Assembly: GCA_044892525.1 (NCBI GenBank)
Contig: CM097885.1
Coordinates: 21,764,001 to 21,828,000, forward strand
Direction: 5' to 3'
DNA length: 64,000 nt
Origin: Schmidtea polychroa
Lineage: Eukaryota
Part shown: in pieces, positions 2,613 through 64,000 of the stretch
Position numbering within the stretch: the stretch's first letter is position 1
Layout: every line of letters starts with the position of its first letter
Position numbers and translations under genes: made by a program
The notes under the pieces: generated by a model
The model's database searches: none
The model's input: only the letters and a program-made list of their open reading frames with translations
What the model was told of the DNA's origin: nothing

Positions 2613-2761
2613 CCTTGACCTTAAAAATATGCCCTTGACATTAAAAATATGACCTTGACCTTTAAATATGACCTTAACCTTTAAAAATATGACCTTGATG
2701 AGTCATAGTATGAGTCATATGACCTTGGAAACGAACTTGATGAGTCATGGTCTTTGTTTCA

Positions 2762-3008
2762 ATGACCTTGGTGAGTCATCGGATGAGTCATATGACCTTG
2801 AATGAGTCATCGGATGAGTCATATGACCTTGAATGAGTCATCAGATGAGTCATATGACCTTGAATGAGTCATCAGATGAGTCATATGACCTTGAATGAGG
2901 CATCGGATGAGTCATATGCCCTTGAATGAGTCATCGGATGAGTCATATGACCTTGAATGAGTAATCGGATGAGTCATATGACCTTGAATGAGTCATCGGA
3001 TGAGTCAT
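2762..3008 (+). repeat. Minisatellite, 8 x 31 bp (ATGACCTTGAATGAGTCATCGGATGAGTCAT)
   Basis: Units start at 2762, 2792, 2823, 2854, 2885, 2916, 2947, 2978. Each has two ATGAGTCAT and one TGACCTTGA, with a few point variants. Confidence 0.95.
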
Positions 3009-3158
3009 GGTCTTTGTTTCAATGACCTTGATGAGTCATATGTCTTTGTTTAAAATTTCACCTTGAGAAAAAAATTAAAATGGCGGGGGGAGGGGAGGGG
3101 GGTATGTCTTTGTCCCAGAGGGCCGCTGGTTTAGTAGGCCGCTATCCCTCTACTAACT

Positions 3159-4230
3159 ATCCCTACTCAAAATTTTAGAAGAGAACAATTGAAAATATCC
3201 GTAATTGAAAACCACAAATAATCTAAAAACAGCATACATAATGAATAATGACGTAAGACCTTCTATCGGCCGTCTAGAACCCGAAGAGAAAATACAATGG
3301 GGAGTAGTTTTTGTAATAGAGCTCACCTGCTCATTGTTTTTCACCTTTGTGTACAGTACCAACATGGTCGTCGCCATGGGTACACAAATGGTTTAAATTG
3401 CAATAGTCATGGAGGTGCTTAGGAAAGAGTCGAACGAATATCTATGATTACCTCTAATGTATTTTAAAATGTAAAAGTGACACACCCCTAAGTAACCAAC
3501 AAAATCAATTAAAATTTACTAAAAATCGAAAATCAATACGGAACTGAGGAAACCGTTGTGGTTGAAAGCCAAATTGAGAAATTATAATGAAAATTTAATA
3601 GGAGTTTCACAGGGAAAGTTATAACGAAAAAACAAATTAAATAAAGTTAATTAATCTGTAATGGGAAGTCTGAGCTAATGAGGAACTCAAAGTGCATTGA
3701 GACCTGACCGACTAGATAGTAAAGTGAACTCACTCGAGCCCCAACAAATTAAAATGATTTAACAACCCTCAAAATATTTACCCAAGATTCTCGAAAGCTA
3801 ATCATTTCAATAATCCTAAATTCTGTAGGCAATTGCCCTCTTAGAAAAGTTTAAAAGAGAGCTCAAAAACAGACAATCCGCCAGTTTTCGAAGAAACAAG
3901 AAAAAAATTGAGTGAATAAGTAAGTCAGCGATCAGAAGATAAAATCTAGTAATTAAAAGCAATTTTAACTCTAGCACCCGAAAAGGTGATTGCCCATTGG
4001 GTTGTCTACCCTAGGGAGCAATATTTATTAGAGAGAAAGGTGCAAATCTAGTGACAAATTGAAATTGTGATTGAAGTTTAATAAAGTTAATCCGTGGTGG
4101 TTTCGATTATTTGTTTAAATAAGAACACGAGTAGTCAGAGAAAACCGACTTGCAAAATATGGAATATTTTCTCTATATCTCAAGGGTTTTGGTACTTCAT
4201 AAGCCCCTCCTTCCCCTTGATTGTAACTGT
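3159..4230 (+). mobile_element. Degraded LTR-like fragment related to the LTR at 57762-60211, interrupted on the left by the Polinton end
   Basis: 3250-3363 matches 58885-58768 (minus) in four conserved blocks. GTAACC(CC)AACA follows at a similar distance in both copies. Right boundary is approximate. Confidence 0.45.
3250..3363 (+). ncRNA. Putative structured cis-acting RNA element, copy A
   Basis: Conserved blocks GACGTAAG-CCTTCTATCGGC-GTC, GGAGTAGTTTT, AGCTCACCTGCT, CAGTACCAAC. Stem ACAATGGG/CTCATTGT covaries with copy B. Confidence 0.55.
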
Positions 4231-8600: not shown

Positions 8601-9141
8601 TCTTCAGGCTAGGAATAAAATTAATGACAACAGTTGGGTATTGTGTGGACCCGGGAACAAAGACATATGACGTCATCGATGACGTCAAAAAGGCATATGA
8701 CGTCATACTCCCACCCCCGGGGAGGGGGTTTTTTTTTTAAATTTTTAAATTTTTTTTAAAAAATATATTACGTTGCGGTATTTTAAAATTTATTATATTT
8801 TAATTATTAAATATATTACGTTGCGGTATTTTAAAAAACTTATTTTGACGGTTAAGTTGACAAAATTATTATTACACACAATATAGTCTATCAGACAAGA
8901 TATTCTGTCACACACACAATCTATAAAAAATATTATTAGTGTCCACACACGCAACAAGTTAGTGTTCTCATCGATAGCTATTGATATATTATTATTATTA
9001 TTAATCTATATACTCCGAGTCTATCCGACAAAATATTCTGTCCCCTTATGGGTACTGCTCACAAGGGTACTGGTCACGCTCAACAACTCGCAAGGGTACA
9101 ATGATATTATTAAACAATGTAATAAAACACATATTTTCTAA

Positions 9142-9189
<48 letters not shown>

Positions 9190-9369
9190 GGGTACTGCTC
9201 ACAAAGGTAAAGGTCACAAAACACACTGGGTAAAGGTCATAAAGGTAACTAACAAAACTTTAACATATTATTATTATTACACACAATGTATAAAAATTGT
9301 TCACAAAGTTACTGTTAAAAAATATTCAAGACAATATGACTAATACATTTATTAAATAATTTAAACACA

Positions 9370-12300
9370 TCATCGACAATAATTATCATCTGCTGGATCA
9401 TGGAAATCATCTGTATCATCTGCTGAGATAGCTTCCGTTGAATCTATAAATATATCGGTGTCACCGCCCCTATAATGGCCATATGCCAAACTTTGATTTT
9501 TATCCACACAATTTCGCTTATCATCTCTACATGTCAAGGCTCTTTTATTATTTTTAATACTAAAAAGTTGGTGATTTTTTGACGTTATTCTAAACTGAGG
9601 GACTGTGTATATTTTATCATTTAAATAACAATCTAGATACGACTGATGTGTTAGTCCAGTATCTTTCATACTTATCTCCTTAGCGTTCATACTTTCCTCG
9701 ACACCCATCAAACTGTAACATTTAGGTCTCAAGAACACCCAATCTTTATATAATAACCCTTTATTCTCGTCTTTGAATTTACCAATGACAGAATCAAGGT
9801 TCCTACTATATAAAGGATGATTTGGGTCATAATTCGAAGTATCTAATAATTGATCTCTAATCATCGCAGGTAAAAGAATGTTAAGACTACAATGTTTAAT
9901 TTCCAAGAAGAAGGAATCTGTGTCTCCAGCAACGATATTAATTTCGCAGTTGAATTCGTCGCGATATTTTTGCAACTCTTCATACTGCAGCTGGTACATC
10001 CTGAGTTTGGATAAATCAAGTACGGTTTGACCAATGTAACTAGGTCTATTCAAACACACTATGTCCTTCCTCAATAAAACCGAAATCAAGTCATCATCGA
10101 TTTTCGTGGATTTACGAAAAGTCGGTTTCGAACAGAATGTTAATAATCTCTGTGAAGAATTACACAGACGTAAATTAATACGTTTTTTAAGATTTTCAAC
10201 AGTCTTGCCGTAAAGACTGTTGTTTAATAATTTATAAAAATTTTTATCGAGTTTATTTGTCGACGCTGCTCGTAACGCCGTATTTGTGTAAATATAATTT
10301 TTGAAAATTTTATCTTGTTTAAATTTAATTGCTCTATGTGTTTTTGATATTTTAACACCTAATTTAATAAATATTTGTAGAAGCCTCCAATGAAGAACAT
10401 AGTTCCTCTTGGGGCTGTGTGTAAGCAACAGCTTCTCTATTTTCGAACCCGGTACACACATCTTTTCAGCGGCAACGGGAAGATCGTCCAGTTTGTCGTG
10501 AATTGACGTCGGTATTTCTAAATCCACTTCTATGGTATAACCATAATCAAGCAGATCTAAATCTACCGTTGTGCATTCAACAATTATATTATTTAATAAA
10601 TTATCATCAGTAACCCATTCAAAGTCACTGCAAGGTAATGGTTGACTTAAAGCCCAACCGTATAAATTATTTATATCTATGTAAAGCAAAGCGGTATCCG
10701 GGTCTGTTTTTACATAATGTTTAATTACAAAAGTTAGTCCGCCACGGATACCGCCCTCGAAAAAGTTATACATCTCCATATCGGTGAGGAGCTCAATTGG
10801 AGAGTTTAAAGTTAATAAGGCTGAATTCCAAGACATACCTGGAATCCCTAAGAAATTTAATGGCTCTAGTCGGTTATGAGCAATGGACTTAGCTCTAAAT
10901 TGCTGGAAAAAATCGGCTAAAAGGAAAACATCAAGTTTTAAATAAACCATCATGTAATCGAAAAGTGAAGTACATGAAGTTTCAACCCAAATTCGCTGAG
11001 CTGTCTCATATTCAGCGGGAGTCACATCTTTCCAAATAGGAGGTAACTGACGAGTGTTATGTAAAACCTCTAATGAAGTTTCGGCATCATAAGGAAAAAT
11101 CCCCTTTGCAGTTATTATTGTACCCTGAAATTCTGATTCGGTCAAGGGTAAAGATGATAAAGTTTTGACAGCATTATTTAAAGACTCGCTGACAAATTGA
11201 TAAGAGTCTATAAATTTAACAGTTAATGAGTCAATCCTAGCAAAAAGACTAAGGAATTTCTCGCTGGTTAAAGGAATACAACTAATATTCCATGAATGAT
11301 ATTTTTGAAAAGCCAAATTTCAAGATATGATGCAGATCATAACCCTTTAAATTATGAAATACTACAGGAAGGGTATGTCTAATTTGCCTCGACAGATTAC
11401 AAGTTGTACAAGCGGCACCGAGATATAGACCGGTAAAATGATCATGGTCCCTAACTGGACTAACTAAAGGCTTATTGCACAAATAGCATGGTGTGCTGTT
11501 TTCAAACATTAATTGTTGCTCATCTGTAATTATCATTTTCTTTTGATAATTTTTATAATAATAAGGAGTTACAATATATTTCCCTATCATTTCAATTTCA
11601 GTAAGAAATTGATCGACACAATCTAAACCGGTGAACGACTTATAAATTTTTACGCCCGTAAAATTATTAATAAAAAGCATACCGGCAGAAATAGGCAGAT
11701 GACGTTGAAAGTAGTGAGTGTCTTTAGGTAAGATAGCCTCAAAGTCAGCGTAAATAACAAAAGGAGGAGTGACTGTTTTACTCCAATCAGTAAATTCTAA
11801 ATATTTATTTTTAGGCAATGTGTACAAGGTAGTACCAAGCTGATTTTTATCGCAAAGACCCTTATGTCTATTAAAAGCGTCATCATTTCTAAAACCGTTT
11901 AAACATCTAGGGCACCACTGACTACAAATCCTAACAGGAGTGATTGAACTATTCCTACAATTAAGGAATCTATTTAGGTCTGTGATTCCAAGATAATGAT
12001 AATTATCATTCTTTTCAATTAATAATAAATTGATAGGTATGGCTCCTACTATCTTACTCCTGTATATTATATCAATAAAGGGATGTTTCATAACTGCATC
12101 TTCATCGGAAATGTCAATCAAAGCCTTTTCGTTATAAGTAAGAACATTTATACTATAACCTGGATTTTGTTGTTCAAATTTACTTATATTTGATAGTTTC
12201 ATCGGCATATCATTAGGATCAAATTTAATTTCAGAAAGATTGTATGAATTAGGGCGATTTCTATATTGCCTATTTATACTATCATATTTAATAATTGACA

Positions 12301-13260
12301 AGAAACTATACAAAAAACAGAAGTGGTCATTATTAACTACATTAACGAGACAGCTTAAGTTTCATAAAGATTTTGGGGTTTCAATAAAACTTCTACCACT
12401 TAACCGACTTATTTCAGCAAATTTAGTCAGAACAAAGCTTATGTATTCTATTTTATTGATAGTCCAATTACTACCTTTCTCATTAATTTTAATTATTTTT
12501 TCATTTAAACGAGCAATACCTTCGTCAATGAATGTATCGCTCCAAACTCGGGCGGAATTCGAGATTGCAAAAGATTGTAACTCATCATCTTTTATAAATT
12601 CCACCTTTAGACAAAATTGAATTTTACATGATATTTATTTATTTATTAAAATGTCTGGTACAGAGACCGTTTTTAAATCTAAAGACGAAACGTCCATTTT
12701 TAATATAATATGATTATTATTTAAATCACTGGTGACATCTACGACACCATAACCTATTTGATTAATATTATTATAATTATTATTATTACCATTATTATAA
12801 TAAATATTACTACTACTACTACTATTATCAATTTCATCATCACTTATGTTGATTATTTCATCATCACTTATTGTAATTACATCAATAACTTTAGATTTTT
12901 TACTTGGTATTGAATTTATTTTTTCATTATTTTTTCTTTTATTCATATTAATTAGATTATTTATTTGATCATTTAATTTATTTACTTGATCTTTTAGTTT
13001 AGTTATTTCGTTTATATCATTATTATTGGTGTTGTTAGTATTATTGTTGATGATATTATTATTATTATTATTGTTGTTGATATTATTATTATTGTTGTTG
13101 ATATTATTATTATTGCTGTTGATATTATTATTATTGTTGTTGTTGATATTATTATTGCTGTTGATATTATTATTATTATTGTTGATATTATTATTATTAT
13201 TATTGCTGTTGATATTATTATTATTATTGTTGTTGTTGATATTATTATTATTGTTGTTGA

Positions 13261-13303
<43 letters not shown>

Positions 13304-14024
13304 AAACGATTCATATAAGCTATAGAAAAGAGACTTCTTAGAAGGTTTAAATTGTTGGAGATGGAGTCCATGCTTATTATAAAATTCCTTATACGTTATA
13401 ACTTCAATAACCTCACATTTAGGGCATAGAATGTAGGTGACACCGTTATATTTATGACTATAATATCTTTCCATTATATCATCGCAGTCATTATGATATT
13501 GACTATTACAAAAGTTTTGGTATTTCAAACCTATGAAAATATTTTTATCATAAAATGTTTAAAAAATATTAAGATAATTTTAATAATCATTTTTAAAGTT
13601 TAAGATATTTTTCGTAAGATATTATTCAAAATTGTCTTTTAAATAGTATCTTATAAAAAATATTATAAAAAAATATATAATTTAATTCGTTTTCATAAAT
13701 AATTTAATTCATTTTCATAAATAAATAATTCATTTTCTAAAATAGATTTTATTTTCATAAATAATATATAAAAGTTATTAATTATAATGTTCAAAATCAT
13801 CATATTTAATAAATCTTCTTTTCAAAATCATCATAAATAAATAAAGAAATCTTCTTTTCATAAATCTTCTTTTCAAAATCATCATAAATAAATCTTCTTT
13901 TCATGAATAAATCTTCTTTTCATAAATAATCCTTTCAAAATCATCATAAATAAATCTTCTTTTAAAATATCTTCTTTTCATGAATAAATCTTCTTTTCAT
14001 AAGTTTCTTTATAATCTTCTTTTA

Positions 14025-14060
<36 letters not shown>

Positions 14061-14388
14061 ATTGTTTAAAAAACTTAAAAACTTATAACAATAAATAAAT
14101 ACTTACATTTTCGTCCTTTCGAAAGAAATTTTCCAGCATCAGAACCAGCAGAAGTATTTATTACATTTCCATCTAAAAGCATAATAAAAATAATAATGAT
14201 TATAATAGTAAACTATTACCATTTATTCTATTCATGTCTACAGCTTGTCCGTCGATATTCATTTTAATTTGTTGATTAGTACCTAATAATCATATTAAAA
14301 ATAATAAAATAATAAATTTACCATTAATTCCTCCAACGATCTTTCCGTCAACTCTTTGAATATTGTTGTTGTTGTTGTTGTTGTTCAT
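9370..14388 (-). pseudogene. Protein-primed family B DNA polymerase (pPolB) with spliced N-terminal leader, TP-like region, OTU-like and EndoVII/HNH domains; disrupted
   Basis: Motifs VIYADFE, VFHNLKGYD, KGIFPYD, YLKLDV, YIDINNLYG, KLLNNSLYGK, GDTDS, GKFKDE, DDKR; CYLC..RDHDH..CTTCN; NNDHFCF..HY. The four ORF-track pieces join through in-frame TAA (12635-12637), TGA (12362-12364) and a 1-nt frameshift near 11302-11310. Leader exons 14322-14388, 14220-14282, 14107-14172, then 13530 onward. AATAAA at 9353-9348. Confidence 0.9.
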
Positions 14389-14414
14389 GTGTTAAATATT
14401 ATTAATAGATTTTT

Positions 14415-14452
14415 AAAAGTGATGAAAAAATGAAAGTGTAGACTATATAAGA
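14415..14452 (-). promoter_or_regulatory. Candidate Pol II core promoter of pPolB: TATA (TTATATAG) plus Inr-like TCACTT
   Basis: TATATA at 14449-14444, TCACTT about 25 nt downstream, ATG at 14388. Confidence 0.5.
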
Positions 14453-14731
14453 GAGATATTACAGGTTTTATTAACCGAACAATGAAAATAGAGATAGGAT
14501 AGGAAAAGACACTACATGTTTGTTTATACAAACCATTACGAAATAATGACCTTTACAAGTCTTTATTACTCAGTGCTTTGTTACTTTGCACTGTGCATGC
14601 ACTGAACATGTAATAGTATTACATAATATTTTTAAACATAAAATAATAATATTTAACAAATAATAATATTTAACAATATTTAACAAATAATTAAAATAGT
14701 CAACAAATAAAAATCATACAGTATACATTTA

Positions 14732-15143
14732 TTAACCATCAAATTTTTTATACAACAACCATGCCAAACAGTGTTGACCACATGTTTGAGTCAATGGATT
14801 TTGAAACATAGTTTTATTATATACAATAGGTTTCCCAATTGTTTGAAGTTTTGATATCAACAAAGCAGGATAATAGAAACCCATAGGATCGAATACGAAT
14901 ATATTACTAGGTTTCACATATATAGCTATCCAATGTTCTCCACCAAGATGAGACGAATGAGTATTGACGATTATGGCTTGATTATTGCTCAAATAAGGAA
15001 TTTTATCGAGAGGAAAAACACCTACAAATTCATTTCCTAATATTTGTTTTCCAATTCGATTAACCTGAACAGAACTACTTTAATAAAATTAAACAGTATC
15101 AAAAAACTTACTCCATGACAACTTTTTGTGTTTCTGTATACAT
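14732..15143 (-). CDS. Adenain-type (C5) cysteine maturation protease, probably two exons
   Basis: FVGVFPLD, VNTHSSHLGGEHWIA, FDPMG, QNPLTQTCGQHC (His/Asp/Cys/Gln). An ATG is reachable only by removing intron 15075-15111. Stop overlaps AATAAA. Confidence 0.85.
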
Positions 15144-16367
15144 TTATACTAGCACGGTTCTATTTGCAGTAATTTGAACTTCATTTTCAAATACTCCATA
15201 TATTATAACATGTACCGGTTCAGTAATGGCCTTTGCAAACTTAATATCCAGTCGTAAATTTCCGTTTTGTGGTAGTTGACTCTGATTTAAATCAAAATCG
15301 GGAGCTAAAACAAATGTGAAAAATGGATATTTGCTTTTAAATTCTTCTAGAGTTATTCCACAATTCAAGTTTTTATCTAAGTAACCCAGATTTTTAACAA
15401 TACTCTGCATATATGTCGCACAGTAATTATCGCTTTCGAAATCTTGAGTATATGTTTCTCTATAATCAGTATTTTTCGACAAAGTCAATGAAGTAACACC
15501 AAAATTTTTGAAAATTGAGCTGGAAGCAGTATAAGATCCATTATATTGCGTTTCACTTTGAAATGTTACCAGAATAAAATTAGGCATTCTTCTGTCACCA
15601 AATATTTGTTCTTTATAGAATGATGAAGCACCTTTAGCAATAGCAAATTGTACAATTTCCTTTGTTTTTAAAGGATAAATTGCATGTTTTGAATTAAGAC
15701 CCAATTGATGACCAGGTAATACTGACGGGTCTACTCGAACTCTTCTCACCAATAATTTTGCATCAACTAATTGCCATATTGGTGCACCAGTAGCACTAGT
15801 AAGAGATAATGCAGAATCGGACCTTTTCAATCTAATATGTATATTAACTCCTGGTAGTAAATATTTCGGTTGATCCATAAAATCAAGTTGTAATGATGAG
15901 CACATAGTGAATACTTTTGAACCTTTAACCCACTTTTTTCTTTCATCATCTGTTGCTGCATAACCCATAGGTGTAAGACAGGTATCTTTAGTATCGGAAT
16001 TGTAATTTAAAATAGTTTCTATCAAAGCCTTGTGAATGAATGTATTATTTCCGCCCTCAATCTTGATATTATTAAATCCCAACACTGCATCTTTAAACAG
16101 AGTATGAAACAGGAAATTGTTTGGTAATACATCTGCATTGGCATCCAAAACTTTTCTATCTTTATCTACAACTTTGATCTGAACAGTCAATAAAGTATCG
16201 TTCAAATCTAAATATTCAGTTTGCGAACCATTAATATAAAACTCGATATCATTTCTACTATCAGTAATCGAATTCATAGGAAAAACTTCTTCAAATGCTC
16301 CAAATTCTATTACAGCCTGGGGCGATGGTCTATCAAATATACATAATTCGGATTTACCACAAATCAT
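15144..16367 (-). CDS. Polinton major capsid protein (double jelly-roll, hexon-like), 407 aa, intact
   Basis: KSELCIF..P..Q, IEFYING..EYLDL..TLL, DF..QPKYLLPGV, GNLRLDIKF are typical of Polinton MCP. Confidence 0.9.
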   Translation of the reverse strand: MICGKSELCIFDRPSPQAVIEFGAFEEVFPMNSITDSRNDIEFYINGSQTEYLDLNDTLLTVQIKVVDKDRKVLDANADVLPNNFLFHTLFKDAVLGFNNIKIEGGNNTFIHKALIETILNYNSDTKDTCLTPMGYAATDDERKKWVKGSKVFTMCSSLQLDFMDQPKYLLPGVNIHIRLKRSDSALSLTSATGAPIWQLVDAKLLVRRVRVDPSVLPGHQLGLNSKHAIYPLKTKEIVQFAIAKGASSFYKEQIFGDRRMPNFILVTFQSETQYNGSYTASSSIFKNFGVTSLTLSKNTDYRETYTQDFESDNYCATYMQSIVKNLGYLDKNLNCGITLEEFKSKYPFFTFVLAPDFDLNQSQLPQNGNLRLDIKFAKAITEPVHVIIYGVFENEVQITANRTVLV

Positions 16368-16658
16368 TTTGCAAATATAGTTCCATGTCCTTTCATTCGT
16401 TTGTTTATACGTGATATTCCATGTCCTTTACGTTTTGGAGCTGGGGCTGGAGGCGTATCTTTTTGAAACATACCAGCAACTCCAGGTAGAACCTTACCTA
16501 ATTCAGCTAAAGCATTTGTTTTTGGGGATGGTAATATTTTCTGTTCATTCATAATCACATCTTTTGCAGTTTTCATACCAAAACTAACCAATAAAATATG
16601 GTAATTCACCGCCAGATTGGCTATCACTATTCATACTAATAATATCGGAATTAGCCAT
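16364..16658 (-). pseudogene. Small basic core protein with protease cleavage motifs, frameshifted or internally deleted
   Basis: ATG at 16658 gives MANSDIISMNSDSQSGGELPYFIG*. A different frame continues FGMKTAKDV...KRKGHG...MKGHGTIFAK*. Confidence 0.7.
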
Positions 16659-17663
16659 CTACTTTACGAAAATGTAGTGTCAAATGAGTTTTTGAGTCTT
16701 TTGGGAAGTTTATAAGTTTTCCACTATCGTCACGAATATTTATTTCTATATTGTTTATACATGAGCTTGAAATTGGTAAATACATGGGATTATCTATATT
16801 TATATTGACAACTTCATCATGTTCATATTTTCCAATCCACACCGATTTCAATAGAGGAACACTGGAATCACCAACAATTATAGGCTTAATAATATTAGTA
16901 TATATGAACATTTGTTGATGATGTTCAAGTATTCTTGGTTTACGTATACCAGCCGATTTTTCCCGATATTGCTGCTTCTCTAATCCAAGTGTATTTGTCA
17001 AATTTTTATCAAATGTAACTTCGCAAATATCATCATTCAAACTGAATGTAAACATCAAATCTTTCACAATGTCCAAACTTTTAAATATGTGTGAACAATT
17101 GTACTTTAAATATTTAAGTAATACATCAAGTTTATCAATATATAATTCGTCAGCGAAGGTGAATGATTCTTCAACTTCATTATTATACGACACTGATATT
17201 TTGATTTCTTCTCTCATTACACTGTTTGCTTCAAATAGATCAAAGCGTAATAAATATTCTGTTTCCATAACTTCATTTTTCAACTTATTGCAGCCCATTC
17301 GTCTGGCATCTTCAATATATTCGAATGTTATTGTAAATGGTTTAAAATCACAACTGATATTTAATCCATCCTTGTAAAACATAGAGCAATGCGGATCTAA
17401 TATTTGATTCGGAATATGATATGTTTTATCATAATTACTGATAATAAAGATACCACTACATGTTTTCATAGCATTCCTTTTGAAATCAATCTTACATTGA
17501 CTATAAAATGGGAATGTATTGTACACGAATGTAAAATCTTGCAGTGCAACTTCCCAGTCACCATTTAAAGAAATCGGATTCTGGAGATTGACCATGAATT
17601 TACTGGCTTGATTATCTGGATGAATAAGCGGGCAACTATTGCTTGGTAAAATAGTATAAAAAT

Positions 17664-17667
<4 letters not shown>
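16651..17667 (-). CDS. Polinton minor capsid protein (penton); start probably GTG at 17667 (mutated ATGA overlap) or upstream ATGs at 17694/17718
   Basis: FYTILPSNS..N..SKF..L..L.GDWEVAL; IYTNII..VGDSSVPLL; PMYLPI..IEINIRD.SG..INF..LTLHF. Confidence 0.85.
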
Positions 17668-18393
<726 letters not shown>

Positions 18394-19029
18394 TTTGCAT
18401 AATAATGATAATTATGGTTATAATAATATTCAATGAAAAAGGTAGAAAGTAAAATTTAGAAATTCTGTTAGTGTTGTCTTTTAGCGTTTATTTTAAAGAA
18501 ATTTCTGGTACTTCCTTGTCAAAATGACTGTTGTAAAAGTTTTGCACTTTCCATAATAATATATTTATGAAGAAGTATATTCAAATAGTTTGAGAATGTG
18601 TAATAATCATTATTGGAAATATTTCCCAGATTATCTGTTAGAGTGGCTTAGGCGATTAAATTTATTTGTAATAAAGAATAATAATCTATTTTTATTTCTT
18701 TTTAAACCATTACTGCTAAAAGATAAGTCCAGAGTCACACATTTTAAAATTCGATTTCATTGAATAAATCGGAATTTCTAAAATGAGATAAAATTAAACT
18801 TTCTGAGTCAAATTGTGTGTCAATTATTAAATTATAATATATAATGTTGCAATTCTTTGAATTTAAATTTATTAAAATAGCTGAGTGTATTTTTATTAAA
18901 GTCAATTGCATTTTCTTGCGTTTATTTATATTCATCAGTCAATAGAGCAGTTATATAAATAGCCCTATCAAACATGCCATTGATATTGATAACTTTTTTA
19001 CATGCACTTGTTAGTGATTGAGGTGACAT

Positions 19030-19475
19030 CACAGCCGACTCAGAGATCGGGACTTCGGGGATTATTCCCGAGGCCCGGTGCTTTCATATATAGTACTGAG
19101 AATTATGCTAACAGCGCTTATTTTAGTATCTTCCTCCGAACCATGCAACAAGATAGGTTAGAGGGGGTGTCTATGTTGTCAATAGAGCATGAAGTAACAA
19201 AACAAATAAATTTTGGTGATATTATCGAGGAATTAGCAGTAAAAAAAGTTTGAACGAAATAAGAATAAAAAATATTATGTTTATGAATATTTATATATTT
19301 ATATATATATGAATATTTATATATTTATATGTTTATATTATTGAATATATTGAAGAAATAAATATTTCATTAAATAAATTGATAAAATTATGTTCATGTA
19401 TCATTTCTTCCTTTTTGGGAAGGAGCCCCGTATACAATATTTCCCGAGGATACACAAGACCAACAGCCGGTCTTG
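19030..19475 (+). mobile_element. Non-autonomous hAT derivative retaining the transposase C-terminus
   Basis: LRTMQQDRLEGVSMLSIEHE..INFGDIIEELAVKK. Degenerate CA..CCG/CCGG..TG ends. Imperfect 8-bp TSD GGTGACAT/TGTGACAA. Confidence 0.65.
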
Positions 19476-19894
19476 TGTGACAAAATGGTTTTTTTCTAAA
19501 TCTATCAATTTTTATATAATTTAATTTCGTTTAGAATTTTCAATCATTGTTTCTATTTACTTGAAATTGATCAAAAATATTAAATGCCCAAAAATCAAAA
19601 TTAAACTTTAATTAAATAAAAAATAAATAAAATTCAAAATATAATGCAAATTGTTATTTTGAATCCTTCAAAAAATGATCTATCTCGGATACTTCTTCTG
19701 TGATCTATTACAATAATGGTTTTTCATTTCCTATGTTATTTAATCCATTTCAATTAATAGTTTCATAATTTGCTAATTAGAGTTTCAATTAGCATTTTCT
19801 CGAAAGTATCTTCTATTTTAAGAGTAATTATTTAATTCAATAAATTTAATCGATTAGATTTTTGAAAACCATTGATCCAAAATTGTTGATTTAA

Positions 19895-20186
19895 CCTTTT
19901 CGCGACGTGCTTTTTTCCTATTAACTTTGATTATAAGACTGACAGTTTTCGAGGTTTTCGGAATCGTACGGTTCGTGTGCCCATTATGAAATAAGAACTA
20001 ATACTGCCAGATTTAAACATGACAAATAAAATGACAGAAGTTTAAACTTACATATAAACATATCTAACACACAAAACGGAAACGTCCGGCATTCGTCGCT
20101 TAAATATAATGAAATCAGATAAATACGGTCTTGGGCTATTTATCACGATTTGTTTACGGCATTATACATTCTTCATCGCGAAAAGG
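19895..20186. mobile_element. piggyBac-type MITE
   Basis: TTAA on both sides; TIR CCTTTTCGCGA. Confidence 0.85.
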
Positions 20187-20300
20187 TTAAAAGGTTTTCA
20201 AGCTGTTTAGTTATTCTTTATTTCATATTATATAACGGTTAGTACCGTTAATTTATGAATATATAAATCTTTCTCGGGTATTATATAATTTGATTTGCAG

Positions 20301-22778
<2,478 letters not shown>

Positions 22779-22974
22779 TAGTGCTAATGAGATTATTGTT
22801 TTTTGTTGTATTGATTGATTGAGTTGTGTTGTTTTCCCAATCTATTGAGATTCGTGTGATTCATTAGATTATATTATATTTGTATATGAGTGCTCACATA
22901 TTATATTTATCGGAGGAAATCTAATGATTATTGTTGTTATTATTAATATTAAAGTACAGCTTAACACAGTAATA

Positions 22975-23277
22975 GAGATGCAGACATTTCCAATGCCAAA
23001 CATAGACGAAATATTAGATTTGTTAGGAGGATCCATTTATTTTAGCTCAATCGACCTTGGTAATGCATATAATGCAGACGAAGAAGAGCAAGAGAAAACA
23101 GCCTTCTCAACAAAGAAAGGCCAATACTGTTTCATTAGAATGCCGTTCGGAATTGCTGCAGCACCAGGTACGTTTCACGAAATGATGACAAAGGTAATAG
23201 GCAAAATAAATGGAGCAATGGTGTATTTGGATGGCATACTGATTTATTCGAGCAGCAAAGAAACCCGTTTTGAGTAG
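22975..23277 (+). mobile_element. Ty3/gypsy reverse transcriptase fragment
   Basis: FPMPNIDEILD, FSSIDLGNAY, KTAFST..GQY.F.RMPFG, VYLDG (degenerate YLDD). Confidence 0.85.
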
Positions 23278-23715
23278 TCATTCTTCACCAGTAATTCAAC
23301 TAATTTATCTACACTTTTTACTGAATTTTTAAAGTGGAAGATGATCGTGATACCATGATCGATAAACCAATCCTTTTACCATGTTTCTTTTATATTTAAA
23401 TTCACAAAAACTCTCTGTGGTAGTATAGAGGCCGGTATCTGTTGGTTTTCTGTAAATTTCTGTCTCATATTGTTATTCTTTGCGTTTAATTAACAAGTCA
23501 AGAAATGCTATGGATGAATCCTTCTCAGTTTCACATGTTCCTTATTTTTAAATATTAGAAAAATATCATAAAAAAATACCTTTAATACACAATTGGTTTT
23601 TCACATTGAAAAGAAGCAATTTTCTTTTCTAAACATGCCAAAAATATTGACGCCATTGTTGGTGCTAAGGGCGAACCCATAGCCACTGCATCAATTTGTT
23701 CATACCATTCATTAA
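23278..23715 (-). mobile_element. Penelope-like retroelement RT fragment
   Basis: Minus strand reads YEQIDAVAMGSPLAPTMASIF and SIAFLDLLI..YETEIYRKPTDTGLY..YKRNMVKGLVYRS, with stops. Confidence 0.8.
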
Positions 23716-24498
23716 CTACTTTGTTTCAAGGCATTCCATATCAAGCATATTCTGGTAGTCAATATGGTTGCCTTCAATAATTTGTTCGGTCCGATTGATT
23801 AGGAAACTGAGGCTTCCATAATGTTTCTGTTGATGAGCTCGTTTAACAAGTTTTCTATGAAATTTGTTTGAGACATATTTTATAGTAATTAAAAATATAA
23901 TGTTTTAGTAATAATGTTTATGAATCTGATTGGTTGATAAACTATAAATGTAAAACATAATAAATTTGATTTGATACAATATGAATACAATATTTCTATT
24001 GGTAATCAGATAATGTATGTGTGCTCACACAATACAACAATAACGGTGGAGACTTCAAATAAATCAATACGTGTCTGTCCAAATACCGCCAAGTTGATGG
24101 ATATTTTAACTATTATTGATGGACCAGACTGGTTAAAACCTCCAGGAAAAAGAATATCCGAAAGATTGGAGAATTTAGAAAATAGCCATGAATATATACA
24201 AAAGATAAAACTTAATTTACTTGATCATATTGATGATTTCAAAAAATCAATTGTTGAAAATAAAAGGAATATGAAAATTATTGATAAGAAACATGATCAT
24301 ATGTTAAGAAATATTGAATTAATAATAAGCGAAATTCAAACAATCAAAGGATCAATAGAAAATCTGAAAAACAATTCAATGTTGCCAGTTTCAAACACTA
24401 TGGTAGCGAATATGAGTACATCAATATTTAGATTACCATTGTTAATTTTAAATTATTTTATTGTTTAATAAATCTATTAATCTGTTTTATTGAATTAC

Positions 24499-24576
<78 letters not shown>

Positions 24577-25135
24577 CCCTTTTGAGTTGTTGAGTGTGAA
24601 CAATACCCACAGGGGGATAAAATATTTTGTCGAATAAACTCTGACTATATATAATAAAACTATATATAATAATAACTCCCGCGCGCGTAAATTTGAATTT
24701 CAAAGGCCTTTTATAGGTTGAGAACATACCATATACCTTCGATGGTATGACCATCATACTTACCTTTGAATTACCTTTTGTTTGATATGTATATTATAAG
24801 ATTTTAAAAATTTTGAACCTTGGACGTTTCAAGGTTATGACCTTCGAACTCACAATCAAAAGTCCTTTTGAATGATATATATTATAAGGTTTAAAAAATA
24901 TTTAAGTTTGGACACCATTTGAAGGTTATTGACCCTGCATAAACCTCCGAGGGTATGACCATCATACTTGCCTCTCAAATACCTTACGAATGATATATAT
25001 TAAAAGGTTTGAAAAAATTCGAAGGTTTTTGACTTTTTGAAGGTTGAGGACACACTATATACCTTCGACGGCATGACCATTGGAGAGAGCTCTTCAAGAT
25101 CTTTCGAATGATACCCATAAAGACCTTTAATATAT
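23716..25135 (+). mobile_element. Fragment of Polinton family A subterminal region with probable accessory ORFs
   Basis: Contains the 75-bp motif (24575-24646), CCCGCGCG and the ~120-bp repeats seen at 2345-2612. Inclusion of the ORFs left of 24500 is inferred from adjacency. Confidence 0.55.
23981..24468 (+). pseudogene. Hypothetical coiled-coil protein, possibly with a frameshifted signal peptide and hydrophobic C-tail
   Basis: ATTGG and TATAAA upstream. MNTIFLLVI reads into IMYVCSHNTT after one frameshift. Heptad-rich core; AATAAA at the stop. Confidence 0.4.
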
Positions 25136-57761: not shown

Positions 57762-58767
57762 TGTTAGGTTGGTAAGTGGGTCGTGCGACTAACACACACT
57801 CTTTTGATCTGACTCCAAAGATTTATGTTCAAAAATGAGAACCCAACACTATTTGGTACGACAATTTATTCATGTGACTTTTATAGATACAAATATTATT
57901 TACAAAATAACAATAAAACTTGCTACCAAAAAACTTGTCGCAATTAAGAAAAGGTATCGGTTGTACAAAGCGTTCTCAGGTATTTCAAGGACGGCGAGTG
58001 CAGGATCTTAATTGATCGACAGCACCGCTCAACAATGACAGATAAAAGACAAGGGATGCCCGAAATTTAACACGATCTCTTACTACCCAGAATTTAGTAG
58101 TAACGTTTCCTAGATAACCTACCCTTTGCTATTTCAAATGGATTTACAAGCAAAATAGTTCCCCTAGAAAACTGATGCTTATTCCCAGTTATAATTTAAA
58201 CCTTACTAAAACTGTTACAATTGGTCTATCAAATACTTGATAACTAAATTCTATTTTTTTGAAAATATGGTTTTCGATTATCTTATGGTACTTATCGATA
58301 GCAAATGTTAATACCTTTTGATTATTTTGTTTTTATTTTGAACAATCTGCAAACAGTCTTGGCTCTCTTTCCAAAAATATAATAATAATAATTCTGACAA
58401 TTATAATTTCCAAGATTTGCTTCGAATTGACTATTGCTAATTAGATTTCCCTGGGATTTTACCTGTGATAGTTGTGACTAATTACTATATATAATTGCTC
58501 TCTAAAATAATTCTAAGCTGTTTTTAATCGTCCGTCTCTCCGAGAATTCTATTCTTTTTATATTAAATTTTAAAATTAAAAGTTCAATAAAAATTACTAT
58601 TTTTATTTTTTATTATTGTTGGGGTTACACCTCGGCTGACTACTCTACCATATTGTCTGGTCTAAGGGTTGATTGTCCATCTCGAATAAAATGTGCCGCC
58701 GCTTTGTCAACCTGGAGTGAAACCTTACATAACTTTCTTCCAGCATAGTGCCCGTGAATTACTTCAC

Positions 58768-58885
58768 GTTGGTACTGCACCATGCAGGCGAGACGCCAGC
58801 AAGCAGGTGAGCTTCTGCCTTAAAACTACTCCTTGCTGAGGCCTCGACTTCCCATTCCTGACTGCCGATAGAAGGGCTTACGTCC
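58768..58885 (-). ncRNA. Putative structured cis-acting RNA element, copy B, containing a 5' splice-site consensus (AC|GTAAGC at 58881)
   Basis: Same four blocks as 3250-3363; stems TCAGCAAG/CTTGCTGG and GAGGC/GTCTC. Confidence 0.55.
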
Positions 58886-59114
58886 ATTTCATTACACCAC
58901 CGGTTGCCAGAATTCCACGAGAATAAATCGGGGATTATTCGTTAACTCTCGAAGACGCTATATTCAACTTATTTAATTAAAATCTGACAGTTTATAAACG
59001 GAAGTAAACGACGAAATTTATTAGTATTCAATATTAATACACAAGGAGTTAATCGTACACATCACGAGTATTCGTGGAGAAAAAGAAATGTCACAATAAA
59101 TGCGATACGACTTC

Positions 59115-59882
59115 CTAACGGACTTCATGAATCTCATGTTCCCATTCGGTGTCGGCGAGCAACTCGTCCAGATCAAAGAATTCGGAGGCACTTTCCTCCC
59201 ATGTCACGCCAGCCGCCGAGATGATGCGCGCTGGGGCCCCTGTTGTCAAGTCGATGGACACTCGAGAACTACCACCGCCAGTAGAGTCTTCTATTGACAG
59301 GAGGCTTGGCTTGGTGGACGCACGCTCACGCTGCCTACGCTTTCGTTCCGCACGCGATAATTGTTTGCGCTTGGGTTTGCTCGTAGTTGTGGTGGTTGGA
59401 AGCGCAGTGGGTATAGAGATGTTAGCAGCTGAAGTCTTGCTAGTACCCGGGAGGACAACGTCCGGTCGCCCAGGTGAAAGTTCGGTTTCCACGCAGTCTC
59501 GACACGGTCTCTTGAACGGCGGAGATGGATCCGAGGAAGGGTTGTGATGAGGCGGAAAGATGTTATCGGCCTCTTTGATAGGAATCTGCACTATTTTTCG
59601 GGTTGTAGCCGCCTGCACGTAGACTTTGTGCAGTGCCTCTGACTGTTCTTTGATGAGACTTCTTTGGGCACGGCTCTCAGATATTAGCGCGTCCCGGCAA
59701 TGCTCGCTACGATCGAGCTTCTTTTGGATCTCTTTCATCCGAGCGGGACTAAACCATGTCCCTTCTAGCTCATCTATCTTCCTTTTGTAACGTCCAATCT
59801 GGGTTTGCAGATCTTTGATGATGGCGTTTTTATCCGCACAAGAGAAGCACGGACGTAACGCAGGTTTGGTAGTTGGTATCAT
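59115..59882 (-). CDS. LTR-encoded hypothetical protein, 255 aa (CxxC, coiled coil, Arg-rich motif, acidic tail)
   Basis: Uninterrupted GC-rich ORF; ATG at 59882 preceded by acceptor-like TTCTTTATAG; AATAAA about 95 nt after the stop. Confidence 0.7.
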   Translation of the reverse strand: MIPTTKPALRPCFSCADKNAIIKDLQTQIGRYKRKIDELEGTWFSPARMKEIQKKLDRSEHCRDALISESRAQRSLIKEQSEALHKVYVQAATTRKIVQIPIKEADNIFPPHHNPSSDPSPPFKRPCRDCVETELSPGRPDVVLPGTSKTSAANISIPTALPTTTTTSKPKRKQLSRAERKRRQRERASTKPSLLSIEDSTGGGSSRVSIDLTTGAPARIISAAGVTWEESASEFFDLDELLADTEWEHEIHEVR

Positions 59883-60637
59883 GCTCGCTATAAAGAATGA
59901 GGTTAAGACGTAATATGTACATGGTTGAAGAAAATACGTGGAATACGAATAATCGACTGCCCGTGGATATCCAGCCATCAAACAACAATGAATGTCCTTA
60001 CTCGTCGATTTAGATTATGTACAAAATTACTTAATTCCATTAAATAACACTAGGTTGACGGAATACAATTCTTTACCTAATCGAACTATACTGATTTGAC
60101 GAATGCAATTCGATTAATACAGGTTCAGGGGTACCTTTACAAACCCTAAAATTTTCCTATTGACCTAGAATTTCATTTATGATCAAAATTTACGAGACCT
60201 CGACGCTAACAACCTTTCCAATGCTCGTGACCCTGTCACCCACTCGCACAACCTTATATGTGATAGTTTAAAGATTGACGATATTTGGAAAATTATTAGA
60301 AATAATGGTAATATTATGTTGTCTAATAAAAACTTCGATACATTACTTATCGCGCTTTGTTAAAATTTTATATGATTATTTATGTGGTCTGCTAAATGAG
60401 ATTATTAATATTACCTAACGTCTAATTTTAAATATTTCTAATTATCTAAAATCTAAATAATTTATAATTAATTTAAAATTCCTATTGGTGATTAAAAGTG
60501 AACTTATCAATATTACCTAAAAATCTAATTTGAATTATTCTAATATTCAAACATCAATACTTTATAATTAATTGAAAATTTCTATTGGTGATCGGAAATG
60601 GTTATAATTGTCCGTGATTATCTCATGATTAATCTAG

Positions 60638-63600
60638 TAGGGTGGAGTGAAAATTTTTTTTTCTTAATATCTTGTTTGGATAGCTATAAAAACTTGGTAA
60701 CACATGCAATTAGTAATGTGGCAAACAATTAGACAATTTAAAGCATATCTTGAGGTTCCACAATTGACCTAAAGTATAGGCATATTTCGATAAAAAAGCA
60801 ATAATCTTTAAAAAAAACATTTTTTTATAAGTAACATATTTATGTTATGGTTTAACTTTTTAACAGTCTGTACATAACATTACAAGTAATAAGAACCATA
60901 TCTGTGAAGGGAAACCACATGCAAACTGTCTAACATGTTTTTATAACTACAAATGATGTTGGGCTTTGGTGTCCAGTTTTGGCATTTTCGATCTCGATTC
61001 CAAGCGTGCTCTAATGAATCCGTCGCGTTTTTCTGGACCACACACCATTTCGGATGCTTCTGTCACTAGCTTGATATGTCTCTCTACTGCCTGGGTTTGA
61101 CAAGGATAGCGGGCGAAATCCAGTCTTGGCGTTTCTTCTTCCCGGATCATGGTTAACAAAGTATCTTCGTCAATGTCCACTACGATTGGAGGCTCTGTGA
61201 TCGGAGTTTTCTGCCAATCGATCATGTCTATGTAGCTAGTAGCTTCAAAGTTGATTACTGGCACGCAGAAAGATCTAACTGAAGTCGTACGTTTCTGCTT
61301 TCTGGATTTCAGTATGCGTCGCAGAGCTAACTCGCGTATATCTGATCTTTCATCGGTAAGCATCGCAAGCAACAGATTTTCTGGATGACTAAAGAATGCG
61401 TTGCGTTGAATTACCGGGTCAACAACTTTCTTCAGCTCGTCTGTGAGGTAGCGTGATTTCAGTATCGTACTGTGGACATGTCAAGCGCCGTCTTTACACG
61501 AAGGGGTATTCTTTATTTCAAACCATGCAGGTGCATAAACTGTTACGATAAAGGTAGCAAGCGTCTTTAGTTCATCCGACGGGCTTCTTGTGGCAACATA
61601 CAGACGTAGTATGCGATTAGCCGTGGTTAACCATCTCGAATGGTTGATAAGACCAGGATTGCGAAGTGAATGGTCGACAGGACAAATACCAACACTTACA
61701 GCAGTACACAAATCGAACAGGTATTTCTGATCTGTACTTAAATCGTCGGAATTTGCACTTGACGGTAGAACACAGTTTATCGGCATGTAGTCAACGATGG
61801 GAAGCTTCTCACAATTCAACAATGACTTTCCAATGGGACCAGAAAATCCTTTTGGACCATTGGTAGGTCCATCAAGATACTGAAACAAATGTCTTAACGG
61901 TAATTCGTTTGCATGCAACTGACATACGAACCACTGTAGTGGTCTGTGTAACGTCACTTCAAGTAATCGAATGATGCCTCCTCGAATGCCCGTATTAGTG
62001 GCTGTCCCATCACAACCTATTGCTTTTATGCCACTCGTGTCAACATTTCTTTTATTCAAATATGCAATCAACTCAGCCGTGATAACTTTGCTTGACCCTG
62101 CAGTTGGTGTAATGTGACCGAAATATGTAGCTCCTGGTTCGGCTATAATCGATATATGTTCTTCAGTTATTATTTTCCGATGAAATTTACCATCGCATTC
62201 TTTAATTTGGGTCATTGTATTGTCTTTTCTGCCGTCAAAATATAACCCAGTGATTGTGTTACTGACTTCGGCACATAATGCGCCACGCTTATTACAACGT
62301 TCTCGACGCACTTTACTTCTGTCAATCACTTTAGAAACATCATGTTCGTGGATTATTCCAACATCTTGAAGAACAGCACTGGCGATTCCTGCTGCCGCCC
62401 TGTCGGATACGCCATGTCGATCACACGCTAAAGCCAACGACGGTAGCTTAACTCTCATCTGCTTGTCATTCAATTTTCGCTGTTGTTTAATTTGGCTTAT
62501 ACAATCGTCATCAGAGTCATCATCGCCGGTATCCATTTCCTCTTCCATTCCAGAAATCTCGTCACAGACATCCGACTGTTTATCACCGATGTCATCAATG
62601 GCAGATTTGGTACACATCTGCCTCTGTGTCGACTCTTTACGGATATACCGCTTTTGTAATCTACTGGATTCAACCTCATCAACTCCAGCTATGATCATAC
62701 TGCGTGAACCCCGCTGATCTTCTAGAAAGTCACGTTCAATTGTGGGTATCTTTCTTGACTTCTCACAGTGACACTGAGACATACAAGAGCACTTGCAGGA
62801 GCAAATGTCAAAGAGTTTAATCGATTCATCTTTAAACTGCGATATTTTCTCTCTGTATGGTTCTGAGTCCTTCCTAGATTTATACGGCTTCAGCAATTTC
62901 ATGAACGTCTTGTGGTACACGTTCAACATTTCATGAACACGGCGGTAGCTTACATGTGGTATGGAAGCTTTGTCCCATATTTGTTCTACTTTCATTGACA
63001 CTGTTTCTGCCACGTTGCGATGTGAAGGATCTTTATTGTTCAATTCGCATTTCAGTCTCTGCTTTGTCAGGTTGTAGAATTTCATAACATCTGCATAAGT
63101 CGGTAGTTGATTGTCGGGCATCTCGGATGGACCACCAAAGATGACACAAGACACTTTCTTTCTGGTTACAGCCATTGCAACTCTAAAAAGGAAAACCAGA
63201 GGCATTTTAAATCCATATTATTTAAATGCCATCAATGACTTCAATAATATGTTATAATATTACCTCTTATAATGAAGTATCGTAGTGGAGTAATTATTTA
63301 TCACTAACAATACTACATACAGCGATTCAAAAAAAATACAATGTTATGCAATATGTATGCAATAATCCGTCTGAATTGACTCTAGAAACAGGAAGTGCAG
63401 CGTGTGAATGCGTAGAAAAGTGAACTAATAATGATCTTTTAGTTAACAGTAAGTAACGATAACGTATTAGTGGAAGCAAAAAGTTGCCAATTCCTTGTAA
63501 TGAAAAGAACACCGGATAGCAAATACATTATCGTTTTCTTATCAATGGTTACATTTTAAAGTTGGTTGTGGAACCTCAAGACATTATTTAAATTATTGTT

Positions 63601-63703
63601 TTTCTTTACAGAGTACTTCATTTGACCTCATAGCAAGTTTTTATAACTATCCAAAGTCTACTAAGTCAAAAAATTTTTTTTCGGTCATTTTCACTCCACC
63701 CTA
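60638..63703 (-). mobile_element. Full-length hATm-type DNA transposon
   Basis: TIR TAGGGTGGAGTGAAAA at both ends; perfect 9-bp TSD TTAATCTAG (60629-60637, 63704-63712). Confidence 0.92.
60947..63175 (-). pseudogene. hATm transposase, about 742 codons, one in-frame TGA at 61481-61483
   Basis: YFDGRKD, GCDGTATNTG, WFVCQLHANELPLRHL, HSRWLTTANR, TQAVER. The two ORF-track pieces are in the same frame. Confidence 0.9.
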
Positions 63704-64000
63704 TTAATCTAGGTCACATCGTTATCTAGTGATATATGTGAAGCGATAGCCTGAGTACAATCGTCTCAGACCAGTTGCTATCCATTCGTCATTATCTCAT
63801 AGAGAGGAAAGATTATTATCAATATGGCATATTGTCGAGTATGTCGCTGAAGATATTTACCTGAGGATTTACTCATGCCTCTCATGTGAATGTTCTCCAT
63901 GCCGGGGTGTTATATGTATGCGTTATGTGAACTCTCGTATGTTTGCCGTATCAATGTGAATTTGCGTGTGGTTGTTTATCACTTGAAATGAATTTTGGAT

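Follow-up and report, generated by a model that had tools for sequence, protein, structure and literature searches.

The window, a 64,000-nt stretch of the Schmidtea polychroa genome (GCA_044892525.1, CM097885.1, positions 21,764,001–21,828,000, forward strand), contains two copies of a structured element about 55 kb apart. We compared the feature in question (58885–58768, minus strand; copy B) with its counterpart at 3250–3363 on the plus strand (copy A). The four sequence blocks described in the original prediction as common to both copies are all in place, with divergent spacers between them; the inner stems differ by three double changes and two wobble changes, as claimed, and the outer stems of both copies fold as proposed. 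The earlier bounds enclose these blocks and stems correctly but are too narrow: the element reaches further 3′, to a third hairpin (H3, 3344–3391 and 58788–58740) that had been missed, and 3′ of H3 a fourth, predicted helix (H4) extends to the end of the long terminal repeat (LTR). The observation is real and larger than first described. The core pattern has two matches in the window compared with 0.00 in 100 shuffles. Single-copy folding energy inside the earlier bounds is unremarkable (z of −1.42 for copy A and −0.39 for copy B), so the evidence is covariation, not stability. The features of the two copies, including the primer-binding site (PBS) where relevant, are as follows.

3159..3501, plus strand: 3′ fragment (343 bp) of an A-type LTR (gag-only family), host of copy A; 90–93% identity to A-type LTR ends, in this span only
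3250..3274, plus strand: H1 of copy A, with a 3-bp stem, a GTAAG-containing internal loop, a 2-bp stem and a TTCTA apical loop; pair 3252–3272 covaries (E<0.01)
3277..3283, plus strand: linker GAACCCG of copy A, complementary to the 5′ strand of the tRNA-Pro T arm, putatively like a primer activation signal (PAS); 36 of 74 copies
3288..3342, plus strand: H2 of copy A, with a long covarying stem, a conserved internal-loop core (3302–3307 with 3322–3329) and a short capping stem
3295–3299 with 3336–3332, and 3309–3320, plus strand: covarying pairs of H2 in copy A (E<0.01)
3344..3391, plus strand: H3 of copy A, with a long stem, an 8-nt by 1-nt asymmetric loop ending CCAA and a short upper stem
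3353–3381 and 3364–3377, plus strand: covarying pairs of H3 in copy A (E<0.01)
3404..3501, plus strand: H4 region of copy A; RRTYRT box and arm (3404–3424) predicted by single-sequence folding to pair with the LTR end
3501, plus strand: end of the copy A host LTR (...AACA), with no PBS after it
58617..64000, minus strand: host of copy B, a solo LTR (Burro-like B family) with a DNA transposon inserted in it; 97% identity to a PBS-bearing LTR
58617..58734, minus strand: H4 region of copy B; RRTYRT box (58734–58729) and arm predicted to pair with the LTR end
58740..58788, minus strand: H3 of copy B
58789..58846, minus strand: H2 of copy B
58860..58884, minus strand: H1 of copy B
59017..59022, minus strand: AATAAA followed by a T/G-rich stretch, a likely poly(A) signal from positional enrichment
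59115..60014, minus strand: open reading frame within the B LTR, spanning 299 codons from stop to stop and matching no Pfam family

The 5′ end of the copy B LTR lies 1,766 bases past the window edge, and a 4-bp target duplication (ATAA) is present on both sides. Its open reading frame ends 93 nt before the AATAAA and is 79% identical to the LTR frame of an intact B element and 51% identical, over 121 aa, to that of clade C; such frames of about 260 codons, without a Pfam family, are present in B and C LTRs (L031:7144–7935; L247:1341–2102; window 59115–60014, minus strand). The DNA transposon in this LTR (60638–63703) has terminal inverted repeats, a 9-bp target duplication, and frames of 578 and 177 codons with one stop between them and no Pfam match; it is presumably hAT-like. 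Elsewhere in the window, a Polinton-like element (~8987–24674) has frames for a protein-primed DNA polymerase B, an endonuclease VII-like protein and an integrase-like protein. Its inverted repeats are at ~8987–9188 and 24500–24674, related repeats are found at 49–568 and 1282–1458, and a reverse transcriptase (RT)-like fragment lies within its region at 22849–23277. Just upstream of the copy A fragment, outside the A-type LTR match, is a 31-nt tandem repeat rich in TGAGTCA (2710–3070).

Covariation and the RNA fold

The two copies belong to a module of ~145 nt with three hairpins and more than 3,300 pattern matches in the genome (0–4 in controls). Three non-overlapping patterns for H2 matched the 781-Mb genome 1,907, 408 and 1,077 times (reversed controls: 0, 4 and 0), a fourth version of the H2 pattern matched 54 times, and an independent H1 pattern matched 3,451 times compared with one control match. 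Same-strand pairs separated by ~14 or ~26 kb are frequent among the matches. The LTR context first proposed is retained; what was described as a pair of divergent elements is replaced by thousands of copies.

A first alignment of 31 copies gave rise to the three hairpins, with 90.9% of cells paired compared with 35–42% when the partners are slid, and with double changes at 28 of 38 pairs. The model built from this alignment produced 99 hits in 97 sequences. After removal of the nine weakest copies, rows with >8% gaps and rows >93% identical to a kept row, 74 copies with a mean identity of 59% were retained. We analyzed covariation on a structure-blind MAFFT alignment using a G-test with average-product correction against 120 simulations of independent columns on the tree, a custom tree-based null rather than R-scape. 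Nine canonical pairs covary at E≤0.008 (one in H1, six in H2 and two in H3). Three non-canonical column pairs at E≤0.05 were set aside as likely phylogenetic or alignment signal. In this larger alignment of 74 non-redundant copies, the covariation first read from two copies exceeds the tree-aware null in all three hairpins.

There are 333 cells with G-U pairs against 67 with A-C, and in 34 of the first 40 copies the sense strand gives a better fold than its antisense (mean z of −2.1 versus −0.8), indicating that the constraint acts on RNA in the coding sense. The G-U excess, along with compensatory changes that keep helices and not sequence, argues against an element that operates at the DNA level with no RNA function, either as factor sites or as single-stranded hairpins in reverse transcription or integration. 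We consider such an element highly improbable, although H4 involves the LTR terminus and the module core contains CACCTG, which we take to be E-box-like.

Many unpaired bases are conserved in the three internal loops. Part of the apparent invariance of the H2 core stems from the search pattern. Among 30 loci selected by H1 alone, 16 have the exact core, 13 differ from it by at most two changes per side and one has no match. Conserved unpaired bases and a retained core are features that would suit a new self-cleaving or branching ribozyme, processing the transcript as hammerheads do in retrozymes, and ribozymes borne by LTRs do exist (available portions of PMC4918200 and PMC6765202). We nevertheless regard a ribozyme of this kind as improbable: the 74-copy analysis found no covarying pseudoknot, the module matches no Rfam ribozyme family even at E 10, the hammerhead core CTGANGA occurs in one of the 74 copies (two on the opposite strand), and cleavage in U5 would be expected to cut R from the PBS-bearing RNA and hinder strand transfer. 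Like retrozymes, the module is a conserved structured RNA in the LTRs of Ty3/gypsy-type elements, non-autonomous ones included, but it has no hammerhead core and its elements are protein-coding and 14–30 kb long. The earlier failure to fit the hammerhead, hairpin, HDV-like and twister cores is borne out by the lack of an Rfam hit to any of these families, and likewise to twister sister, pistol and hatchet. With Rfam 15 as a whole, the window gave 0 hits at the gathering cut-off; copy B had none at E≤10 and copy A had two chance hits on the opposite strand.

Two further readings of the loops are not supported. The segment suggested as the partner in a kissing loop is the 3′ strand of a covarying stem (pair 3309–3320), and the true apical loop offers at least four pairs in 8 of 74 copies. 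Dimerisation palindromes of at least 6 nt in the apical loop occur in 5, 2 and 1 of the 74 copies for the three loops. The suggested retroelement leader element survives as a covarying sense-strand RNA structure in the LTR, without an Rfam match and plausibly serving replication, without support for its kissing loop or for the TATA box and splice donor considered below.

Two patterns gave 0 matches in viral contigs. Metagenomes yielded 33 pattern matches, none with a full-length model score; the best (E 0.011) lies on the pattern itself, and we took these matches to be chance. Judged by these sequence searches, the viral and metagenome collections appear to hold no true homolog of the module. 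A search of sequencing runs listed no RNA data set as carrying it. Weak model matches of 24–46 bits (L002:2216–2388, L015:2357–2512, L056:964–1138, L102:1572–1731 and L044:7425–7580) may represent old or more distant versions of the module.

Host elements and position within the LTR

In ~30-kb Burro-type Ty3/gypsy elements and in their gag-only relatives, the module is found within the final ~250 nt of the LTRs, in the coding sense, and ends ~110–125 nt before the LTR end. One 26-kb match pair corresponds to the two 3,859-bp LTRs (99.8–100% identical) of a ~29.8-kb element (B type) that has the hallmarks of an LTR element, TG...CA ends and a 4-bp target duplication. It encodes gag, CCHC knuckles, a fusion glycoprotein, protease (PR), RT, RNase H, integrase (IN), ankyrin repeats and a RING-MATH protein; a Pfam search of the element at E 0.01 found no BIR or BCL2-like domains. 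The polyprotein of a second 26-kb element (clade C) is 83–93% identical to that of the B element.

Burro (GYPSM1), in the available portion of its description (PMC6431247), is likewise ~30 kb long, with a polyprotein comprising gag, CCHC knuckles, a fusion glycoprotein between gag and pol, PR, RT, RNase H, IN and ankyrin, and with RING and MATH domains. The B element has the corresponding domain order (gag, fusion glycoprotein, PR-RT-RH-IN, ankyrin, MATH) at ~30 kb. Because domain content and length fit this description, the host family is likely the planarian Burro elements. That portion of the description is silent on LTR RNA structure, the PBS and gag-only relatives. A role for Burro in planarian regeneration has been reported, as cited in the available part of PMC13465017.

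Match pairs 14 kb apart correspond to the 1,645-bp LTRs of A-type elements. All three A-type elements examined lack an RT or integrase match and are left with a gag-like frame only, ~35% identical to B gag where aligned; pol is lost in these three elements, and the module, spacer and PBS are kept. The 14–15 kb gag-only element is an abundant, non-autonomous Burro relative (L035–L037, L245–L246, L250–L251) and is unmentioned in the available portion of PMC6431247. Five PBS junctions with a regular spacing of 13.55 kb (G000:C1:77268877–77323122) suggest a tandem array of this element.

The TATAAA noted upstream of copy B is present, at 58996–58991 rather than 58997–58992. Its proposed role as a promoter is not sustained: it is missing in L005 and L014, and TATA-like words show no positional peak. 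The word AATAAA is enriched 180–220 nt upstream of H2, with 21 of 74 copies in one 45-nt bin versus 1–4 in upstream bins. Promoter-like boxes lie 0.8–3.2 kb upstream of the module, with a CCAAT box and a TATA-like stretch near the 5′ end of A, B and C LTRs. Given AATAAA before the module and promoter-like boxes near the LTR 5′ end, the module probably belongs to U5; it would then not be a TAR-like hairpin at the cap and would follow a long R (0.8–3 kb, unusually long). The U5 placement itself is drawn from the AATAAA enrichment, and many A-type copies have no AATAAA. Contigs of four sequencing runs on the A-type LTR had A-tails at two A-rich places and, in one run, higher depth over the module; these were set aside, as contigs cannot show ends or level.

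The GTAAG in H1 is conserved at 88–99% per position downstream of the enriched AATAAA, as might be expected of an RNA-processing or export element. Such an element could act by CTE-like export of unspliced genomic RNA, or by binding U1 through GTAAG and so damping the poly(A) signal ~150 nt upstream in the 5′ LTR. Short strings in the module resemble what we take to be a constitutive transport element (NXF1-binding internal loops), non-autonomous elements need export too, and a consensus donor near the putative promoter would place the module inside an intron. The base at −1 of the proposed splice donor, however, is C in 44 of 74 copies and covaries with its stem partner; the splice-donor reading is not supported. 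The short stem bearing the CTE look-alike loop covaries as a hairpin, the module has no Rfam match, and its presence in both LTRs provides no asymmetry without H4. We therefore consider a processing or export element unlikely. Position and retention in themselves fit export or packaging equally well.

The primer-binding site and a predicted fourth helix

A, B and C types have the same 7-nt spacer after the LTR end, followed by 19 nt complementary to the 3′ end of the host tRNA-Pro(TGG). Exact LTR-spacer-PBS junctions number 579 in the genome. Among the PBS-bearing LTRs at the first 30 of these junctions, 28 have the module; the other two share one deletion, and a genome search added one further deletion copy and one unrelated match. 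Since the three deletion copies share flanking DNA and have neither an LTR start nor a partner LTR, they are duplicated fragments with no sign of retrotransposition, and the deletion variant was ruled out as a natural knock-out that had transposed.

An RRTYRT box follows H3 in 57 of 74 copies, compared with 9% of control windows. Of 12 folding predictions, made for 12 of the 28 PBS-bearing copies, 11 have the box paired (P≥0.75) with the LTR end and spacer. For the 48 of 74 copies having both the box and the LTR end, the arm pairs with its own LTR end at −20.2 kcal/mol versus −12.8 kcal/mol with the ends of other copies, and is predicted to pair better with its own in 45 of 48. The corresponding value for copy B is −20.9 kcal/mol, and the box-spacer pairing has P 1.0 in the 97% identical L233. 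These predictions point to a helix that spans the U5/leader junction beside the PBS. Folding of the alignment failed to recover H4, as the three clades cannot be aligned in this region. H4 would explain the invariant spacer, and its full closure is predicted only in the 5′ LTR.

The usual LTR-to-PBS spacer is 0–3 nt. The 7-nt spacer, invariant at L207–L236 and at the 579 genome places, may need unusual end processing by integrase.

A multi-domain fold with conserved loops and a very long leader could also be expected of an IRES or another element controlling translation of the polyprotein. The predicted fold closes at the LTR end and PBS rather than at a start codon, and the gag-pol frame of the B element starts ~2.9 kb after the LTR end; we find translational control very unlikely.

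No polypurine tract was found before the 3′ LTR in the A, B and C elements, which have in common a non-purine, hairpin-forming stretch instead. In the 45 bases before the 3′ LTR (L032, L036, L245, L247, L250) this conserved stretch ends in TGATT, the same as the PBS spacer. A pairing of the module linker with the stretch before the 3′ LTR was considered and rejected (clade C keeps the linker and not the partner). Plus-strand synthesis has to begin at the start of the 3′ LTR, to which the H3 loop sequence CCAAC is complementary. Conceivably, H1–H3 pack together as a compact RNA of a new class that is catalytic or generates primers, being either a ribozyme (self-cleaving or branching) or a component of a priming system used in place of the polypurine tract; we think this quite unlikely.

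A proposed replication domain

Our preferred reading, with a probability of roughly 0.6, is that the module is part of a predicted four-helix U5/primer-site RNA domain, lineage-specific and needed in cis for replication, namely for tRNA-primed reverse transcription and Gag packaging. It draws on analogy with HIV-1, Ty1 and Ty3 (available portions of PMC1865047, PMC3592414 and PMC5371799). The domain would act in cis at the 5′ end of the genomic RNA, setting up tRNA-Pro priming of reverse transcription, and would be recognized by Gag for packaging. H4 would zip the LTR end and the 7-nt spacer, fully only in the 5′ LTR, so that the PBS would begin at the base of the helix. The conserved internal loops within H1–H3 would present a surface for tertiary contacts or for binding Gag/NC or RT, rather than one for pairing with the tRNA; additional contacts with the D and T arms of the tRNA may come from short flanking boxes. 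We infer which replication step the module serves; its retention in gag-only elements would be compatible with a packaging signal.

Extended primer contacts and U5 stems are known from HIV-1, Ty1 and Ty3 (available portions of PMC1865047, PMC11251516, PMC3592414 and PMC5371799). As in the U5-PBS domain of HIV-1 and RSV, a structured U5 would lie directly upstream of an 18–19-nt PBS, with a stem across the U5/leader junction and a stretch that may match the T arm of the primer on its 5′ strand. The module differs in having no sequence or Rfam similarity to that domain, in its three large hairpins with conserved internal loops and in its 7-nt spacer, and its PAS-like linker is ~230 nt from the PBS and missing in one clade. 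With the Ty1 extended PBS region and the Ty3 bipartite PBS it would have in common a PBS-adjacent RNA structure tied to priming and packaging, and possible D-arm and T-arm contacts. Here, in contrast, the PBS is contiguous and full length, the structure is contained in the LTR, and neither a pseudoknot nor a conserved palindrome was found.

The PAS pairs with the primer T arm (available portions of PMC11251516 and PMC1865047) in the way that the linker could; the linker is absent in the B clade, which uses the same PBS, and 29 of 100 shuffled tRNAs match it as well as tRNA-Pro does. The H1, H2 and H3 loops (82, 64 and 74 of 100 shuffles as good) and the RRTYRT box (42 of 100) fare no better. 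Since the conserved loops are not above shuffles, they probably bind protein or each other. The upstream flank is complementary to tRNA-Pro at a level reached by 0 of 100 shuffles, and the LTR end at a level reached by 1 of 100, a value confounded by H4; three control tRNAs score lower for both, and both windows were chosen after the matches were seen.

We found no description of this LTR structure in literature searches; the original Burro genome paper, the 2026 Burro1 regeneration paper and their supplements may describe the LTR. The fold is real and apparently uncatalogued, and of a functional kind already known. Cis-acting RNA structures have been mapped for few LTR elements beyond retroviruses and yeast Ty1/Ty3, and the thousands of natural variants and strong covariation make this fold immediately accessible to modelling and probing. 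Its occurrence in a lineage that has an env-like domain and a 7-nt PBS spacer and lacks a polypurine tract raises the question of how the RNA of a 30-kb retroelement is primed and packaged. In annotation, the module is a good marker of Burro LTRs, solo LTRs and gag-only families.

The genome also contains very long tandem arrays of single tRNA genes (G000:C1:130901010 onward; C4:76658343 onward; C140, C333 and C474). The spacing is 475 bp for Pro(TGG), which has 1,555 pattern matches across the genome, 424 bp for Lys(TTT) and 278 bp for Arg(TCG).
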